Shown: one piece after another, positions 4,206 to 50,239 of the stretch
Layout of the letters: every line of letters begins with the position of its first letter
Position numbering within the stretch: the stretch's first letter is position 1
NCBI GenBank assembly: GCA_046347485.1
Contig: JAXMGB010000012.1
Span: 47,808-111,807 of the forward strand
Length of the DNA: 64,000 nucleotides
Direction of reading: 5' to 3'
Source: Methylotetracoccus sp.
Lineage (GTDB): Bacteria; Pseudomonadota; Gammaproteobacteria; Methylococcales; Methylococcaceae
The notes under the pieces: generated by a model
Told to the model about the DNA's origin: nothing
The model's input: only the letters and a program-made list of their open reading frames with translations
The model's database searches: none
Position numbers and translations under genes: made by a program

Positions 4206-4221
4206 AGCAAGGCTTGGGCCA
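4206..4221 (-). promoter_or_regulatory. Sigma-54 -24/-12 promoter for the WD40/DUF4082 gene
   Basis: Minus strand TGGCCCAAGCCTTGCT matches TGGCAC-N5-TTGCW. Confidence 0.75.
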
Positions 4222-16234: not shown

Positions 16235-16250
16235 AGCAAGACGCGCGCCA
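16235..16250 (-). promoter_or_regulatory. Sigma-54 promoter for the amino-sugar operon
   Basis: Minus strand TGGCGCGCGTCTTGCT, with an AT-rich IHF-like tract upstream. Confidence 0.75.
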
Positions 16251-43390: not shown

Positions 43391-43406
43391 AGCAAAGACG
43401 ATGCCA
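43391..43406 (-). promoter_or_regulatory. Sigma-54 promoter for the wecB-to-lyase operon
   Basis: Minus strand TGGCATCGTCTTTGCT, near-perfect consensus. Confidence 0.8.
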
Positions 43407-44080: not shown

Positions 44081-45778
44081 ATGCGGACGAACCGGATGAC
44101 CAGAACGATGCTGATGCTGCAATTCGACGCGGCATCTCGCGCGGGATTCCTGCTCGGATTGATCGGCTGCGAATTGCTCGGCCTGCGGGCGTTCTTCGCC
44201 GTGCCATGCCTGTATACGCCCGCTCCGTCGATCGTCACGACGCTCGATTGGCCGGTGCTGCTGCTGCATGGCGCTCGAGACGTATGGAAGTTGACGCTGG
44301 CGATCGCTGTGAGCTGCGTCGCGGTTCTATGGCCTCGCGCGGAATCCATCATCCACCGATTGCATCGCGCGAGCGTGGATCGGCGCACTGGACCGGCTCT
44401 TAGCTTGCATCTGCTGTCGTTTGCGGCGCTGTGGTTCGCGACCACCATGATTTTCGGCGATCCATATCGCGTCACCGGTGACGCGGCGTTCGCGGGCGTG
44501 CTTTGGTACTCACTCGTCGCGTTGACCCTGGCGTCCTGGTTGAACGCGATCGCGCCGGCTCGAAGCTTGATGGAGGTCGTGCGGGGCCATCGAATGCAAG
44601 TGTCGCTCGGCATCGGGCTAGGTTTCAGCGCCTGGCTGCTGCTGCGCATGTTCGAACGACAGCAGGCGCCGCTGGCGCAGCAAGAACTATGGTCCGCCTT
44701 GTCGAACGCGACACTGTGGATGGTCCAAGCGCTCGTGCGCCTTCTGTATGGCGAGGTCGTCTTCGATCCCGCCGCAAACCTGGTCGGAACACCATCGTTC
44801 CACGTCGAGGTCAGCTACGCCTGCTCCGGTATCGAGGGGATCTCGCTGATGACGATTTTCCTCGTGCTTTACGGATGGCTGTACCGCCAGGAGTTGCGCT
44901 TTCCGTACGTGCTGGTGTTGATCCCGTTGGGAGCCACGGCGATCTGGCTGGCGAACGCGGTACGGATTACGGCGCTGATCGTGGTCGGCTCATCGGTGTC
45001 GCGCGAGATCGCGATCGATGGCTTCCACGCCCAGGCCGGGTGGATCGCATTCACGGTGATCGCCCTCGGCGCGATCGTGATGACCCACCGAACCCGCTTG
45101 TTCACCCGGAGCACGTGGTCGTCGCCGAGGATTGACGAGCCGGCCCAACTGGCATCCGCTCTGCTGGCACCCTTCCTCGTACAACTCGCCGCGACGATGC
45201 TGACCTCTGCGATGTCGAATGGCTTCGACGCCCTTTACCCCCTGCGCGTGCTGGCCACGGGCGGGACATTGGTCGTATTCGCCTCACGCTACCGAAATCT
45301 GGGCTGGAGTGTGTCGCCCGAGGCGTTCGGGTTTGGCATCGCCGCCTTCTTGATCTGGATGATCCTTGATCCGGGGGCTTCGGGGACACCGACCCGCGTG
45401 CAGCAGAGCATCGAAGCGCTACCCTCATGGGCCAGCGCCTCCTGGATCGCCGCGCGAGTCGTCGGCGCGACGATCACGGTCCCCCTGGCGGAAGAACTCG
45501 CGTTTCGTGTCTATCTGCTGAGAAAGCTGACCGCAATGGACTTCGAGAACGTCGCACCGAGAGCATTCAACTGGGTTGCGTTCGCGGGCTCGTCGGTGTT
45601 GTTCGGCCTGCTGCACGGTGATCGCTGGCTCGCGGCCACGCTCGCGGGCAGCGCGTTTGCCCTGGCCCTGCGCCGACGCGGGCAAATCGGTGACGCGGTC
45701 GTGGCGCACGCAACGACCAACGGTGCGATCGCTTTGGTCGTGCTGCTCAACGGGCGTTGGGATCTCTGGGGAGCTTGA
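44081..45778 (+). CDS. xrtE: Exosortase E / CAAX (CPBP) protease fusion, VPEID-CTERM system
   Basis: Exosortase triad ACSGIEG (Cys), NAVRI (Arg), GFHAQAGW (His); C-terminal EELAFR, FGLLH, HATTN CPBP motifs. Confidence 0.88.
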   Translation: MRTNRMTRTMLMLQFDAASRAGFLLGLIGCELLGLRAFFAVPCLYTPAPSIVTTLDWPVLLLHGARDVWKLTLAIAVSCVAVLWPRAESIIHRLHRASVDRRTGPALSLHLLSFAALWFATTMIFGDPYRVTGDAAFAGVLWYSLVALTLASWLNAIAPARSLMEVVRGHRMQVSLGIGLGFSAWLLLRMFERQQAPLAQQELWSALSNATLWMVQALVRLLYGEVVFDPAANLVGTPSFHVEVSYACSGIEGISLMTIFLVLYGWLYRQELRFPYVLVLIPLGATAIWLANAVRITALIVVGSSVSREIAIDGFHAQAGWIAFTVIALGAIVMTHRTRLFTRSTWSSPRIDEPAQLASALLAPFLVQLAATMLTSAMSNGFDALYPLRVLATGGTLVVFASRYRNLGWSVSPEAFGFGIAAFLIWMILDPGASGTPTRVQQSIEALPSWASASWIAARVVGATITVPLAEELAFRVYLLRKLTAMDFENVAPRAFNWVAFAGSSVLFGLLHGDRWLAATLAGSAFALALRRRGQIGDAVVAHATTNGAIALVVLLNGRWDLWGA

Positions 45779-46045
45779 GATCCAGTCACCACTATCCAAG
45801 CTCGAAACCGACCACGGCATTTCGCCGAATCGTTAAGCACGACTTCACCCGACCGTCACCGGCGACCGATACGCGGCGATGCGCATTCCCGGTTAAAATC
45901 CGGTCGACGGCCTCCGGCTTGCTAGCGGCAGACATCGGACCAGTGCTGCGGTCGTCGATTCGACGGGAATCGCGCGAACCTTGAGTCCGCGCTCGGCCAT
46001 CGGCGCCGTCGGCCGATCGAGTCCCACGCGGACGGTAAACAGGAA

Positions 46046-46399
46046 ATGAACGCGGCCCGCATCAAGAGCTTCTTCACGTTGCTGGTGCTGGCCCTGATCG
46101 GCTTCGGGCCGATCTCGTTGACCGCCCTGATCGGCTTGTACGTGGTGGGCCGGCGGCCCGCCTGGTTCATCGAGCTTGTCGAAGCAGTCTACGGAGGAAA
46201 GAGAATTCGGCCGTCTCAGGCGCCGCGTGCATCGGCATACCTCCGCGCACGCTATACCGCCGCACTGATCGGCCTGCTGATCCTGGACATCGCGCCGATA
46301 CCCATCGTCGGCTCGATCGGGCTTTACATCGTGCTGGCGCGTCCGGCATGGTTCCTGCGCCTTTCACGAAACCTCTACGCGGGATTTGACCGGCGCTGA
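46046..46399 (+). CDS. Small membrane protein made of two internal repeats
   Basis: AGGA RBS; GPISLTALIGLYVVGRRPAWFIELVEAVY vs APIPIVGSIGLYIVLARPAWFLRLSRNLY. Confidence 0.75.
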   Translation: MNAARIKSFFTLLVLALIGFGPISLTALIGLYVVGRRPAWFIELVEAVYGGKRIRPSQAPRASAYLRARYTAALIGLLILDIAPIPIVGSIGLYIVLARPAWFLRLSRNLYAGFDRR

Positions 46400-46823
46400 G
46401 ACCGAGTCGGTACTCCCAGTCCATCCGTCGACCAATGGCGACCGCCCTGAATGTTCGGCACCGAGCGAGGAACGTCGGCATAGTGCCTTGAAGGGCAACT
46501 GCCGTGGAATGAGAAGCCCCAGACTGCATCGCCGCCAGGAGTAGGCTTGCGCCGAACAAGCGGCGCCGACGCGCATGTTGAGGACATCGGATCGAGAATC
46601 GCGCGCACTGGGCGACGATCAAGACGAAAAGAGAAATCCCGGATATTCCTGCGCCCGTACCAAGACGGTTCCGTGTTCGTTCCCTGTCACTACCCGGGAT
46701 TCGCGGCCATCCAGAGCGTCCCTTGCTCGGAATCCGGCCGACAGCGTTGATTTCCCCCCTGTCGCGGTGCCGATTAAACGCCCTATTGCCATACTCCGCA
46801 ATGGGGAATTCTACGTAGTGACA

Positions 46824-47447
46824 TCAACTTTCCGATTTGTATGTGCCGTGCAAAACGCCCATCCGGATCACCGCCGCGAGCGAGCGCGTGCCCATCTTCT
46901 GCATCAGGCTCTCACGATGCTTCTCGACCGTGCGCTCACTGATGCCCATCGCCAGCGCCATGACCTTGTTCGAATCGCCGTTGACGATACCGCTCATGAC
47001 TTCCCGTTCGCGCTGCGACAACTGGGAGAACAGCTCGTTGAACCGCTGTCGTTCCAGATCGCGCTGCCGGTTGGTCGTATCGATCGTCACCGCAGCGCGC
47101 ACCCGATCGAGGATCAGTTGATGCGCGGCGGGCTTTTCGATGAAGTCGAACGCGCCCGATTTCACCGCGTTGACAGCCATCGGTACGTCGCCATGCGCGG
47201 TCACCATGATCACCGGCAGATGGGGGCCCACCGTAGACAGGCGCTCGAGCAAGCGCAAGCCCCCCATGCCGGGCATCCGGACATCAAGCAGCATGCAGCC
47301 AGGGCTGGGGTTTCCCGGGCGCTGCAGAAACTCCTCGGCCGACTCGAAGAGTTCGACCCGATAACCCGCCGATTCCAGCAACCAGCGCAGCGACTCCCGC
47401 ATGTCCTGGTCATCATCGACGACGAAGACCGTTGCCTCAGACACCAT
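46824..47447 (-). CDS. FixJ/LuxR-family response regulator
   Basis: VFVVDDD, LLDVRMPG, FIEKP, LSQREREV...SNK...TVEKHR HTH. Confidence 0.92.
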   Translation of the reverse strand: MVSEATVFVVDDDQDMRESLRWLLESAGYRVELFESAEEFLQRPGNPSPGCMLLDVRMPGMGGLRLLERLSTVGPHLPVIMVTAHGDVPMAVNAVKSGAFDFIEKPAAHQLILDRVRAAVTIDTTNRQRDLERQRFNELFSQLSQREREVMSGIVNGDSNKVMALAMGISERTVEKHRESLMQKMGTRSLAAVIRMGVLHGTYKSES

Positions 47448-49053
47448 GATGGGTCTCCGCCCTGTGTATCGGCAATGCGATGTGCCATGTGACGCCATGC
47501 TCACCCGAGGATTGCAGAGTCATCCGCCCGCCATGAGCCTCGACGATCGTACGGCAAATCGATAAACCGAGACCGATTCCATCGGGTTTCGTCGTCAGAA
47601 ACGGCTCGAACAAATGCTGGGCGATTTCCTGCGCGAAACCGGGACCGCTATCGCTGATGCCGACCTCGACCTGTTGCGCCGCCGCACTCGACGCCCAGAT
47701 ACGCAGCTCGCGCCGGCCTACGTCGTCCGCCGCCATCGCATCGATCGCATTCAGGACCAGATTCAGAACGAGTTGCTGCAGGTAAATCGACTGCCCCCAG
47801 ACCGGGGGAAGTCCCGGCTGTATATTCAGCCGCAACCGTATTCGCTTGCGCTGCAGCTCACCGTGCACGAGTGGCAGCACCTCGCGGATGATGGCCTCCA
47901 GATCGACCCATTCGCGTTGCAGTTCGTGCTTGCGGACCAGATCGCGAATACCGGCAACGACCTCGCCGGCGCGAGTCGACAGCTTCAACATGTTCGTCAT
48001 GACCTCGCCGAGCGCCGGGTTCGCCTCGAGCAAGTCGCGGAATCGCAGCGTCGCGCCCCCCGCGTAATTGGCGATCGCCCCCAAAGGCTGATTCAGTTCG
48101 TGCGCCATCGTCGCAACCAGTTCGCCGGCGGTCGTCAGCCTCTGGGCGTAGCACAACTCATCCTGCTGCTGTTGCAGCCGTTCCTCCAGCTCCTTGCGAG
48201 CCGTGATGTCCATGTGCGTGCCAGCGGCCCGCAACGGGGTTCCGTCCGGTTCCCGATCGAAGACCTTGCCGCGCGTCAATACCCATCGCCAGCGACCGTC
48301 CTTCATCAACAAGCGATGTTCGACCTCGTAAGTCTCGGCCGTTCCATCGAGATGCGCATTCAGCCGGTCCATGACGGTAGGCAGGTCATCGGGATGGATC
48401 AACCCCAACCACTGGTCGAACTGTGGACGAATCTCGTCCAGCGAGTAACCGAGCATCGTCGCCCAACGTTCGTTGAACACTGCGATCCCGGTCTTCACGT
48501 TCCAATCCCAAAGCCCGAGATCGGCACCGGTCACCGCCAGGTCCAGACGTTCCTCACTGGCCCTGAGTGCCATCTCGGCGGTCCTGCGTTCGCTCGCCTC
48601 GCTCTCGAGCCGTTCGACGGCGCCGCGATGCCGGGAAATTTCGTCGCTGAGCTTGCCGTTGACGACCGCCAGTTCGGACGGGGTCGGAATCTTCAGCGCT
48701 CGCGGCATGACCAACCACAAGGAGACCGCGGTCGCCATCGACAACACCGCGGTTGCGGCCTTCAGCAGCCCCTGAACACCGTAGTGCGGATGCCACAAGG
48801 TCCAGACGTCGAACACATGAGTCGTGCCGCAAGCCAGAATGAACGCGGCAAACAGAATCAGGACCCAGCGATATAGAAAGTCGCGGCGGCGAAGGACGAA
48901 ATAGGCGAGCGCGAACGGGATCGAGTAATAGGACGCGGCGATCAGCGAATCCGAGATCAGATGCAGGCTCAACAGCCCTTCGTCCCACAGGAAACACATC
49001 CCATGGGGCATGAGGTCCCGGCGCGACAAGCCGCCCAGCAAGTTGTCGAACAT
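47437..49053 (-). CDS. Sensor histidine kinase: ETR1-like ethylene-binding TM domain + PAS + HisKA/HATPase
   Basis: SDSLIAASYYSIP and FAAFILACGTTH; PAS IHPDD; AHELNQPL, NLVLNAIDA, DSGPG, GIGLGL. Confidence 0.9.
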   Translation of the reverse strand: MFDNLLGGLSRRDLMPHGMCFLWDEGLLSLHLISDSLIAASYYSIPFALAYFVLRRRDFLYRWVLILFAAFILACGTTHVFDVWTLWHPHYGVQGLLKAATAVLSMATAVSLWLVMPRALKIPTPSELAVVNGKLSDEISRHRGAVERLESEASERRTAEMALRASEERLDLAVTGADLGLWDWNVKTGIAVFNERWATMLGYSLDEIRPQFDQWLGLIHPDDLPTVMDRLNAHLDGTAETYEVEHRLLMKDGRWRWVLTRGKVFDREPDGTPLRAAGTHMDITARKELEERLQQQQDELCYAQRLTTAGELVATMAHELNQPLGAIANYAGGATLRFRDLLEANPALGEVMTNMLKLSTRAGEVVAGIRDLVRKHELQREWVDLEAIIREVLPLVHGELQRKRIRLRLNIQPGLPPVWGQSIYLQQLVLNLVLNAIDAMAADDVGRRELRIWASSAAAQQVEVGISDSGPGFAQEIAQHLFEPFLTTKPDGIGLGLSICRTIVEAHGGRMTLQSSGEHGVTWHIALPIHRAETHHGV

Positions 49054-49233
49054 CGCCCGCTGTCTCCGCGAGTCTTCCGGCTGCGGCGCGGCGGCTGGCC
49101 CCCACCCAGCCAGGCACGACGTCCGCGGCAATGTGACGTCTAGTACGATTCCATCATGTCGCGCCGGCGCCGATCAAGCCCGAGCAGCATAGGCGGCACC
49201 GGCGGCCGACGACATGCGCGACCATCGACTGAT

Positions 49234-49632
49234 TCAGCTCTGCTCCCACGGAAGGCCCCGAAAACGCCATCCGCCCACCGTTCCGCGGTGCTTGGCGGGA
49301 TCGAGCGGGCCCTCGAACCCCTCATCGATGTTGGCGAGGTTCCGATAACCGGCGGCCAAAAGCGCCCGCGCCGCATCCATCGAGCGCTGGCCACTGCGGC
49401 ACATCACCAGGATCGGCCGGTCGAACTCTACCGCGACGCAGCGGACATCGTCCAGGAAATGCGTGTTCGGGGCCCAGTCCGGCGCGGTTTTCCATGGAAT
49501 GTTCACGGCGCCGACCGGATGGCCGACAAAGGCGAACTCCAGCGGGTCGCGCACATCGAGCAACAGGCTTCGGGGATCCCGCTGGATGCTCTCCCAGGCC
49601 TCGACGGGCCCGATTCGGGTGATCTCGGTCAT
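49234..49632 (-). CDS. Rhodanese-like domain protein
   Basis: LLDVR, GHPVGAVNIP, CRSGQRS, GFEG; GGAGG RBS. Confidence 0.9.
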   Translation of the reverse strand: MTEITRIGPVEAWESIQRDPRSLLLDVRDPLEFAFVGHPVGAVNIPWKTAPDWAPNTHFLDDVRCVAVEFDRPILVMCRSGQRSMDAARALLAAGYRNLANIDEGFEGPLDPAKHRGTVGGWRFRGLPWEQS

Positions 49633-49648
49633 CGTTTGCCTCCGGTGA

Positions 49649-50239
49649 TCATTCAGCCGCTCGTTGTCCGACAAAATAGGCCTCGTCCCTACGGCCGGCA
49701 TCCGGGTCGCCACAGCGCGCGTCCTCGCGGTAAAACCGCACGATCAACGGCGCGAACATTCGTAGCAGCTCATTCTCCTCGAGCAGGAATTCGGCCGATA
49801 CCGGACCGGCCGACCCGGGCCTTGCTCGCACGAAAGTCTGGTAGTACAGCAACCCACCCGGCTTGAGTGCCGCGATGATCGAACCCGTGAGCTCTCGCTG
49901 CAGAAAGCGGGATACGACGATGAGGTCGAAACGGCGCCGGGGCCACTCGATGCGCCCGACGTCACGGACCTCAGCCTTCACGTACCCCTCCCGTTCGAAC
50001 GAGCTGCGGGTCAGCGCGGCGATCGCAACCGCGGAAATGTCCCACGCGGTGACCGAGAAACCGCGTCCGGCAAGATACAGCGCGTTGCCACCACGCCCGC
50101 AAGCCAGATCGAGCGCCTCCCCGCAACGCGGCAACAAGTGCGAATTGGCCTCCAGAACCCAGGCGGGCTGCGGCGGAGTATCGGAATCAAGCCCCGCAAG
50201 GTAGCGCGCATCCCACTTGGCGGCCGCGGAATCGCTCAC
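49649..50239 (-). CDS. Class I SAM-dependent methyltransferase (TehB-like)
   Basis: KWDARY, ALDLACGRGGN, FDLIVV, LKPGG. Confidence 0.88.
   Translation of the reverse strand: MSDSAAAKWDARYLAGLDSDTPPQPAWVLEANSHLLPRCGEALDLACGRGGNALYLAGRGFSVTAWDISAVAIAALTRSSFEREGYVKAEVRDVGRIEWPRRRFDLIVVSRFLQRELTGSIIAALKPGGLLYYQTFVRARPGSAGPVSAEFLLEENELLRMFAPLIVRFYREDARCGDPDAGRRDEAYFVGQRAAE

Follow-up and report, generated by a model that had tools for sequence, protein, structure and literature searches.

A methanotroph sensor kinase of the ETR1 type, a candidate for copper/ethylene sensing, and its FixJ-class partner

Overview of the two-component system

A sensor histidine kinase gene and, overlapping its end, the gene of a response regulator are located on the reverse strand of the window, by which is meant the whole stretch of 64,000 nucleotides (nt) of Methylotetracoccus sp. 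DNA analysed here (contig JAXMGB010000012.1). Sequence comparison and structure prediction support the reading of the kinase as a copper/ethylene sensor of the ETR1 type, and of the regulator as its FixJ-class partner, in a methanotroph. It is probable that the two proteins form a genuine two-component system that responds to Cu(I)/ethylene. The N-terminus of the kinase belongs to the ETR1_N family and carries its binding residues, the catalytic residues are intact, the pairing of kinase and regulator is conserved in relatives, and the host is a methanotroph. The principal features are located as follows.

47437-49053, reverse strand: sensor histidine kinase, ETR1_N-PAS_3-HisKA-HATPase_c (open reading frame (ORF) and Pfam)
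48985-49008, reverse strand: PHGxCxxW motif, residues 16-23, N-terminal to the Pfam domain and predicted to be periplasmic (homologue alignments)
48688-48975, reverse strand: ethylene-binding domain (EBD), residues 27-122, with three predicted transmembrane helices (Pfam PF25487, AlphaFold2 (AF2) model, AzoEtr1 alignment)
48214-48477, reverse strand: PAS_3 domain, residues 193-280, with no assigned ligand (Pfam, E 3e-23)
47467-48126, reverse strand: kinase core of the FixL/NtrB-like class, HisKA 310-375 and HATPase_c 422-529 (Pfam, NCBIfam)
47437-47447, reverse strand: 11-nt overlap of kinase stop and regulator start, ATGGTGTCTGA (sequence)
46824-47447, reverse strand: cognate response regulator of 207 amino acids, REC and GerE, the latter a LuxR/FixJ/NarL-type helix-turn-helix (HTH) (Pfam, NCBIfam)

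Ethylene-binding domain

Membership of the kinase N-terminus in the ETR1_N family is essentially certain. The Pfam model (PF25487), whose cut-off is 27 bits, matched with E 6.1e-39 and 132.6 bits over positions 2-97 of its 97 positions, and the same site was recovered with 136.9 bits in a profile search of the genome. A previous reading, made from the sequence alone (below, the sequence-only reading), had quoted sensor strings, which are present in the intact kinase ORF, and had proposed an ETR1-type ethylene-binding domain with all of the listed Cu/ethylene residues conserved. This proposal agrees well with the present results, in that D35, Y42, I45, P46, I72, C75, and H79 are all found in the kinase, together with K98. 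From D35 to H79 the residues display a constant offset of +10 from D25 to H69 of ETR1, and K98 corresponds to ETR1 K91, the ETR1 numbering being taken from the published AzoEtr1 comparison (PMC11819568) and from the Pfam model.

In ETR1, Asp25, Cys65, and His69 coordinate or orient Cu, while Lys91 pairs with Asp25 (PMC10266040). In AzoEtr1, the ethylene receptor of Azospirillum brasilense, D35, C75, H79, and K98 have been equated with Arabidopsis D25, C65, H69, and K91, and all seven residues needed for ethylene binding have been reported (PMC11819568). Furthermore, saturable binding of 14C-ethylene was observed for AzoEtr1(1-130), and the variants tried in complementation of the biofilm response included D35A and C75A (PMC11819568). 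All eight residues (the seven and K98) are the same in AzoEtr1 as in the window kinase, and none of the eight varies among the aligned homologues, of which 22 were compared in full length and 38 over the N-terminal (EBD) part.

Aligning or modelling the N-terminus had been suggested as a check of the domain assignment, and both approaches gave a consistent picture, with a gapless alignment to AzoEtr1 and an AF2 model containing three helices in a fold matched by plant receptors. The model of residues 1-140 has a pLDDT of 84.9, rising to about 90 in the helices, which are predicted at residues 25-55, 62-84, and 91-120. Its top fold matches in the ESM Atlas are ETR1_N-GAF kinases from Streptophyta, with TM scores of 0.76 and 0.74 over 120 residues, a comparison in which both sides are predictions. 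Sequence search of the PDB with residues 1-140 returned chance matches to G-protein-coupled receptors only (E >1), and Foldseek against the PDB returned nothing at E 0.001 or better, so that a solved structure of the domain was not found. Helices 1 and 2 are connected by a loop, R55-R57/R62, whose strongly basic character suggests a cytoplasmic position and hence a periplasmic N-terminus. D35, C75/H79, and K98 each lie 5-10 residues from the predicted periplasmic ends of their helices, as judged from the AF2 helix boundaries only.

Ahead of the Pfam domain, P16, H17, C20, and W23 of the PHGxCxxW motif are invariant in both sets of homologues (22 and 38), and the motif also occurs in AzoEtr1 and in both paralogues encoded by the host genome. 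We know of no description of this motif, which could be a candidate site for a dimer disulphide or for copper entry.

Kinase gene, kinase core, and PAS domain

The kinase has 538 amino acids and is encoded by an intact ORF, for which a longer, TTG-initiated frame is also present. Translation from the ATG at 49053 is preferred because GGAG is situated 9 nt upstream and because Met1, which is aligned with the first residue of the homologues, is invariant (n = 22). In agreement with the sequence-only reading, a PAS domain is found in place of GAF: PAS_3 occupies residues 193-280, and no GAF domain was found in the kinase by the Pfam scan. The catalytic residues H318, N431/N435, D468-G470-G472, and G492-G494-G496 are intact, and are likewise invariant in the 22 homologues.

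The core resembles those of FixL, AtoS, and ZraS-type kinases. The description of the protein as FixL-like holds for this core and not for the remainder, since the NCBIfam FixL model (NF041777), which has a cut-off of 850 bits, scored 203.8 bits and aligned only with kinase residues 292-531 (model positions 245-483); the haem-PAS part of the model had no match in the PAS_3 domain.

The presence of a good PAS_3 domain that separates the membrane region from the kinase, and of an extra PAS-containing insert in relatives of the same genus, raises the question of whether the membrane domain serves as an anchor or dimerisation module only, PAS_3 being the real sensor of redox state, a metabolite, or light. 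Such an arrangement is considered very improbable. The eight pocket residues are invariant in dozens of homologues with very different cytoplasmic portions (PAS, none, REC, HWE kinases, GGDEF-EAL), and the role of a mere anchor is disfavoured because the pocket is under selection despite this variation.

Response regulator and its pairing with the kinase

The receiver catalytic residues D11, D12, D55, T83, and K105 are present in the regulator. Among the NCBIfam models it is matched best by FixJ (NF006900), aligned over positions 1-199 of 203; the score, 223.5 bits, is under the cut-off of 255, and the sequence points to a member of the FixJ/NarL class and not to FixJ itself. An overlapping FixJ regulator had been claimed; the overlap and the class are retained here, and the identification as FixJ is withdrawn. 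Identity of the pair with FixL/FixJ was rejected, as neither protein reaches its equivalog cut-off (204 vs 850 bits for the kinase and 223.5 vs 255 for the regulator).

The regulator start possesses its own GGAG, 7 nt upstream, which together with the 11-nt overlap of the two genes suggests translational coupling. Seven orthologous loci were compared, with the following identities: L085 (97%), L086 and L099 (64%), L100 (48%), and L101-L103 (~50%). The overlap is identical in L085 and L086, and the regulator gene directly follows the kinase gene in 7/7 of these loci. The pair and its overlap persist in relatives whose identity ranges from 97% to 48%. A pattern search of named genomes was dominated by the FixL-like kinase core and returned mostly kinases that have no ethylene-binding domain; it was not used for orthologue context. 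It can also be observed that the orthologues at L101-L103 (genomes G009, G004, and G001, of the same genus and family) are longer, at 670-705 amino acids, and that their extra segment repeats the region ~125-208 of the window kinase, comprising the coiled coil and the start of the PAS domain.

Proposed signalling process

The kinase would be situated in the inner membrane, where its three helices would build a Cu(I) pocket near the periplasmic face, formed by D35 on helix 1, C75 and H79 on helix 2, and K98 on helix 3. The copper would then bind ethylene or a closely similar pi-acceptor gas. The change on binding would be relayed by the D35-K98 bridge and helix 3 to the coiled coil and the PAS domain, by which autophosphorylation at H318 would be altered; by analogy with ETR1 and with SynEtr1, the receptor of Synechocystis, ethylene is expected to lower kinase activity. 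Subsequently, the phosphoryl group would be passed to D55 of the coupled REC+GerE regulator and transcription of its regulon would change. For the system in the window, we infer the binding of Cu(I) and ethylene, the direction of the response, and the genes that it targets.

Several points weigh against a Cu(I)/ethylene-responsive system. Ethylene binding by the window kinase and by its methanotroph homologues is predicted from sequence, and the common depth of D35, C75/H79, and K98 is suggested by modelled helix boundaries alone. The PAS domain may carry a second input. Moreover, overall identity with AzoEtr1 is only 34% (BLASTP), and the output differs, being a DNA-binding REC+GerE protein of 207 amino acids here and a stand-alone 135-amino-acid receiver, AzoRR, without an output domain in Azospirillum (PMC11819568).

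If ethylene is bound, its perception by bacteria would be extended from a cyanobacterium and a root alphaproteobacterium to methane-oxidising Gammaproteobacteria, represented by the kinase and its two paralogues. The partner is a DNA-binding protein of the FixJ/NarL type, and the regulon would therefore be directly mappable, unlike that of the output-less AzoEtr1 receiver. As a sequence find the kinase is ordinary, since its domain family is large, is included in Pfam, and has been covered by reviews (PMC7700396).

Host, paralogues, and distribution

Ethylene builds up in waterlogged soils, and in wetland and paddy soils it is both a plant and a soil signal; it is also co-oxidised by methane monooxygenase, where it competes with methane. 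The host assembly (2.7 Mb, 59% complete) contains three pmoA-family loci, one of which is a canonical pmoCAB, and among named PmoA sequences the one from Methylogaea oryzae is nearest (84%), the best uncultured match reaching 88%. On account of these loci and this PmoA, the host is regarded as a Methylococcaceae-like methanotroph; that it might be a methanotroph had been raised by the sequence-only reading. The third pmoA-family copy (G000:C4:119085-119791, reverse strand, L107), ~7.5 kb past the right end of the window, is split over two frames that cover profile positions 3-153 and 148-238, and represents a pseudogene with a frameshift or else an error of assembly.

Three ETR1_N proteins are encoded by the host genome, each with a different output: a FixJ-type regulator for the window kinase, a hybrid-kinase phosphorelay beside a nucleotide cyclase, and a GGDEF-EAL fusion. 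The hybrid kinase is the paralogue on contig C5, EBD-HisKA-HATPase-REC-REC (G000:C5:48573-50654, forward strand; L104:6574-8652), with Ser at the position of Pro46. The fusion is the paralogue on contig C15, EBD-PAS(x4-5)-GGDEF-EAL, of ~1,300 amino acids (G000:C15:26500-30717, forward strand; L105:6501-10715), in which all seven residues are present. The C5 paralogue resides in a signalling cluster (L104, G000:C5:42000-57000) that includes a divergent HisKA-REC-adenylate/guanylate cyclase gene; directly downstream of the paralogue lies a single-domain REC gene, followed by two hybrid kinases, first a PAS-GAF and then a multi-PAS protein.

The domain is abundant in general. With residues 1-140 as query, phmmer against 1.84 billion cluster representatives (50%-identity clusters) returned 8,462 clusters at E <=1e-3, of which 1,595 reached E <=1e-30. 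In a word-indexed search, ETR1_N was seen in combination with a wide range of outputs, among them PAS-kinases annotated in Azospirillum and Methylocaldum. Many proteobacteria are likewise described as having ethylene-binding domains with diverse outputs (PMC7700396).

Within the order of the host, ETR1_N and the pmoA family were scored in a sample of 121 genomes, as listed below by family (f) or genus (g).

Host family f1: ETR1_N 27/33, pmoA 22/33
Genus g13, within f1: ETR1_N 7/8, pmoA 2/8
Family f10: ETR1_N 20/33, pmoA 33/33
Family f7: ETR1_N 3/8, pmoA 7/8
Family f6: ETR1_N 0/14, pmoA 9/14
Family f8: ETR1_N 0/22, pmoA 14/22
Seven remaining families together, including f6 and f8: ETR1_N 0/46
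Whole sample: ETR1_N 51/121, pmoA 93/121

Genomes that carry ETR1_N contain 1-5 copies. It follows from these counts that the domain is typical of certain lineages and is not tied to methane monooxygenase. Strict coupling of ETR1_N to particulate methane monooxygenase (pMMO) was rejected, because f6 and f8 contain pmoA without ETR1_N, while g13 has ETR1_N in 7/8 and pmoA in 2/8 genomes. The specific tie to methane oxidation envisaged by the sequence-only reading is thus not supported, strict co-occurrence not being observed across the order.

These data also bear on the ligand. The domain might bind Cu(I) and report either another pi-acceptor (CO, acetylene, propylene, or an isocyanide) or the copper supply, which is important to a pMMO-dependent methanotroph. 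Consistent with this are the methanotroph host with its three pmoA-type loci, the occurrence of ETR1_N in 27/33 and 20/33 genomes of two methanotroph families, in 1-5 copies and in three in the host, and the fact that no paper on ethylene-receptor-type domains in methanotrophs was found in the open-access literature. Nevertheless, such a role appears unlikely. The seven high-affinity ethylene residues and K98 are kept, which is the signature of plant, cyanobacterial, and Azospirillum receptors proven to bind (PMC11819568, PMC10266040), and the domain does not track pMMO (ETR1_N in 0/14 genomes of f6 and 0/22 of f8; 7/8 vs pmoA 2/8 in g13). Ethylene is accordingly retained as the favoured ligand. 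The wider proposal of a lineage-wide, multi-copy, ethylene-binding sensory system of Methylococcaceae and Methylomonadaceae-type methanotrophs, serving for ethylene or Cu(I) status, is regarded as doubtful.

Neighbourhood and the exopolysaccharide locus

Upstream of the kinase, on the same strand, are the genes ntrY, ntrX, and trkA and those of a TehB-like methyltransferase and rhodanese, followed by a gap of 180 nt. Downstream of the regulator, ~425 nt of non-coding DNA precede a convergent membrane-protein gene, an exosortase-CPBP gene, and then the polysaccharide locus. The features concerned are as follows.

46046-46399, forward strand: membrane protein of 117 amino acids without a Pfam match, between the regulator and exosortase genes
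44081-45778, convergent: exosortase-CPBP fusion gene, ~1 kb from the end of the regulator gene
4207-4221, 16236-16250, and 43392-43406, reverse strand: sigma-54-like -24/-12 sites before the polysaccharide and VPEID-CTERM operons, with one mismatch each to TGGCAC-N5-TTGC

The 117-amino-acid protein (46046-46399) displays an apparent internal duplication of a unit of ~35 residues, LYV/I...RPAWF occurring twice, and shares 85% identity with its counterpart in L085, the 97% relative. The sigma-54-like matches in the whole window are not above chance (51 observed vs 61 expected), and it is the positions in front of operons alone that are suggestive. A scan of 45700-49800 for sigma-70 promoters and terminators detected no promoter, and the number of terminators was that expected by chance.

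It has been proposed that the system may govern surface or exopolysaccharide (EPS) behaviour. In its strongest form, the system would directly control the adjacent exosortase E/VPEID-CTERM and polysaccharide locus. The exosortase-CPBP gene is indeed close, a large polysaccharide locus lies beyond it, and the arrangement is identical in L085, where the same neighbourhood includes a VPEID-CTERM peptide gene. Moreover, biofilm or cell-surface traits are altered by ethylene receptors in Azospirillum and Synechocystis (PMC11819568). Direct control is nonetheless considered improbable. Being convergent to the kinase-regulator operon, the exosortase gene is not co-transcribed with it. At the loci of 64%, 48%, and ~50% identity (L086, L099, L100, and L101-L103), none of the exosortase, EPS, epimerase, rhodanese, or TehB-like methyltransferase genes is found within 6-10 kb, and only the kinase and the FixJ-type regulator are shared with the window. 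Furthermore, the sigma-54-like sites of the polysaccharide operons would require an AAA+ activator, not a GerE-type regulator. The neighbouring polysaccharide and exosortase genes are thus real, whereas the functional link that had been drawn from them is reduced to adjacency, because these neighbours are kept only in the 97% relative and are lost at <=64% identity. A link to EPS is plausible only as a general effect on biofilm, by analogy with the known bacterial ethylene receptors.

Conserved element 3' of the regulator

The non-coding DNA that follows the regulator gene contains a conserved element.

46612-46823, reverse strand: conserved non-coding element with a long terminal hairpin (arms 46694-46701 and 46635-46642) and a T-run at 46621-46634 (comparison, nhmmer, RNAalifold)

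The 224 nt after the regulator stop are 94.2% identical to L085, compared with 84-87% at third codon positions of the kinase and regulator genes and 79-86% in other intergenic regions. The element was recovered by nhmmer at the same position in both 64% loci, L086 and L099 (E 2e-10 and 2e-8), and was not recovered in L100-L103 or in the rest of the host genome. The RNAalifold consensus comprises a long terminal hairpin with 2 compensatory pairs, then the T-run. Folding of the single sequence gave no thermodynamic signal (z = -0.5), the Rfam scan of 45700-49400 returned nothing meaningful for the element, and a metagenome pattern scan for it gave 0 matches. The simplest reading is a conserved 3' untranslated region with the operon terminator, although the element could instead be a small RNA (sRNA). 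In Synechocystis, the sRNA gene csiR1 is located directly downstream of the SynEtr1 regulator gene (PMC11819568), and by analogy the element could play a csiR1-like role in the output of the system.

Comparison with known systems

FixL/FixJ of rhizobia provide the nearest named NCBIfam models, both for the class of the kinase core and for that of the regulator (REC and LuxR/GerE HTH). They differ in that the haem-binding PAS part of FixL is unmatched here and in that both proteins lie under the equivalog cut-offs.

With ETR1/ERS1 of Arabidopsis, the kinase shares the ETR1_N domain, all seven binding residues and the Lys91 equivalent, and a predicted fold (TM 0.76 over 120 residues). In contrast to these receptors, PAS takes the place of GAF and a fused receiver domain is absent; the Cys4/Cys6 pair is also absent, with a conserved Cys20 in the N-terminal tail. 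Instead of signalling through CTR1/EIN2, the output here would presumably be His-Asp phosphotransfer to a transcription factor. The designation "plant-ETR1-type" is therefore apt for the domain and does not extend to a plant peculiarity in a bacterium, since AzoEtr1 has the same EBD-PAS-kinase architecture (PMC11819568).

SynEtr1 (slr1212/UirS, Synechocystis PCC 6803) is similar in being an EBD kinase with phosphotransfer to an adjacent DNA-binding regulator (slr1213), and its csiR1 RNA gene 3' of the regulator may be compared with the conserved non-coding element 3' of the regulator here. It differs by an extra phytochrome-like light-sensing domain.

The closest likeness is to AzoEtr1, whose sequence was taken from plasmid ABSP7_p1 of Azospirillum brasilense Sp7 (L004:3001-4578, 525 amino acids) and whose first codons match the published cloning primer. 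Both proteins consist of a three-helix EBD, PAS, HisKA, and HATPase_c, with 525 amino acids in AzoEtr1 and 538 here. The first 125 residues align without gaps and with identical numbering, identity being 57% over residues 16-125; PHGxCxxW is shared, and in both cases a response-regulator gene is immediately downstream. The regulator gene in the window overlaps the kinase gene and encodes a DNA-binding protein in place of the receiver AzoRR(etr1). A scan of the 180-nt region upstream of the kinase for sigma-54 -24/-12 sites found none, and the RpoN site reported for Azoetr1 therefore has no counterpart here. The hosts are a gammaproteobacterial methanotroph in one case and a plant-root alphaproteobacterium in the other. 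Taken together, the kinase is of a known bacterial ethylene-receptor kind, nearest to AzoEtr1, from which it is distinguished by its DNA-binding partner and its host.

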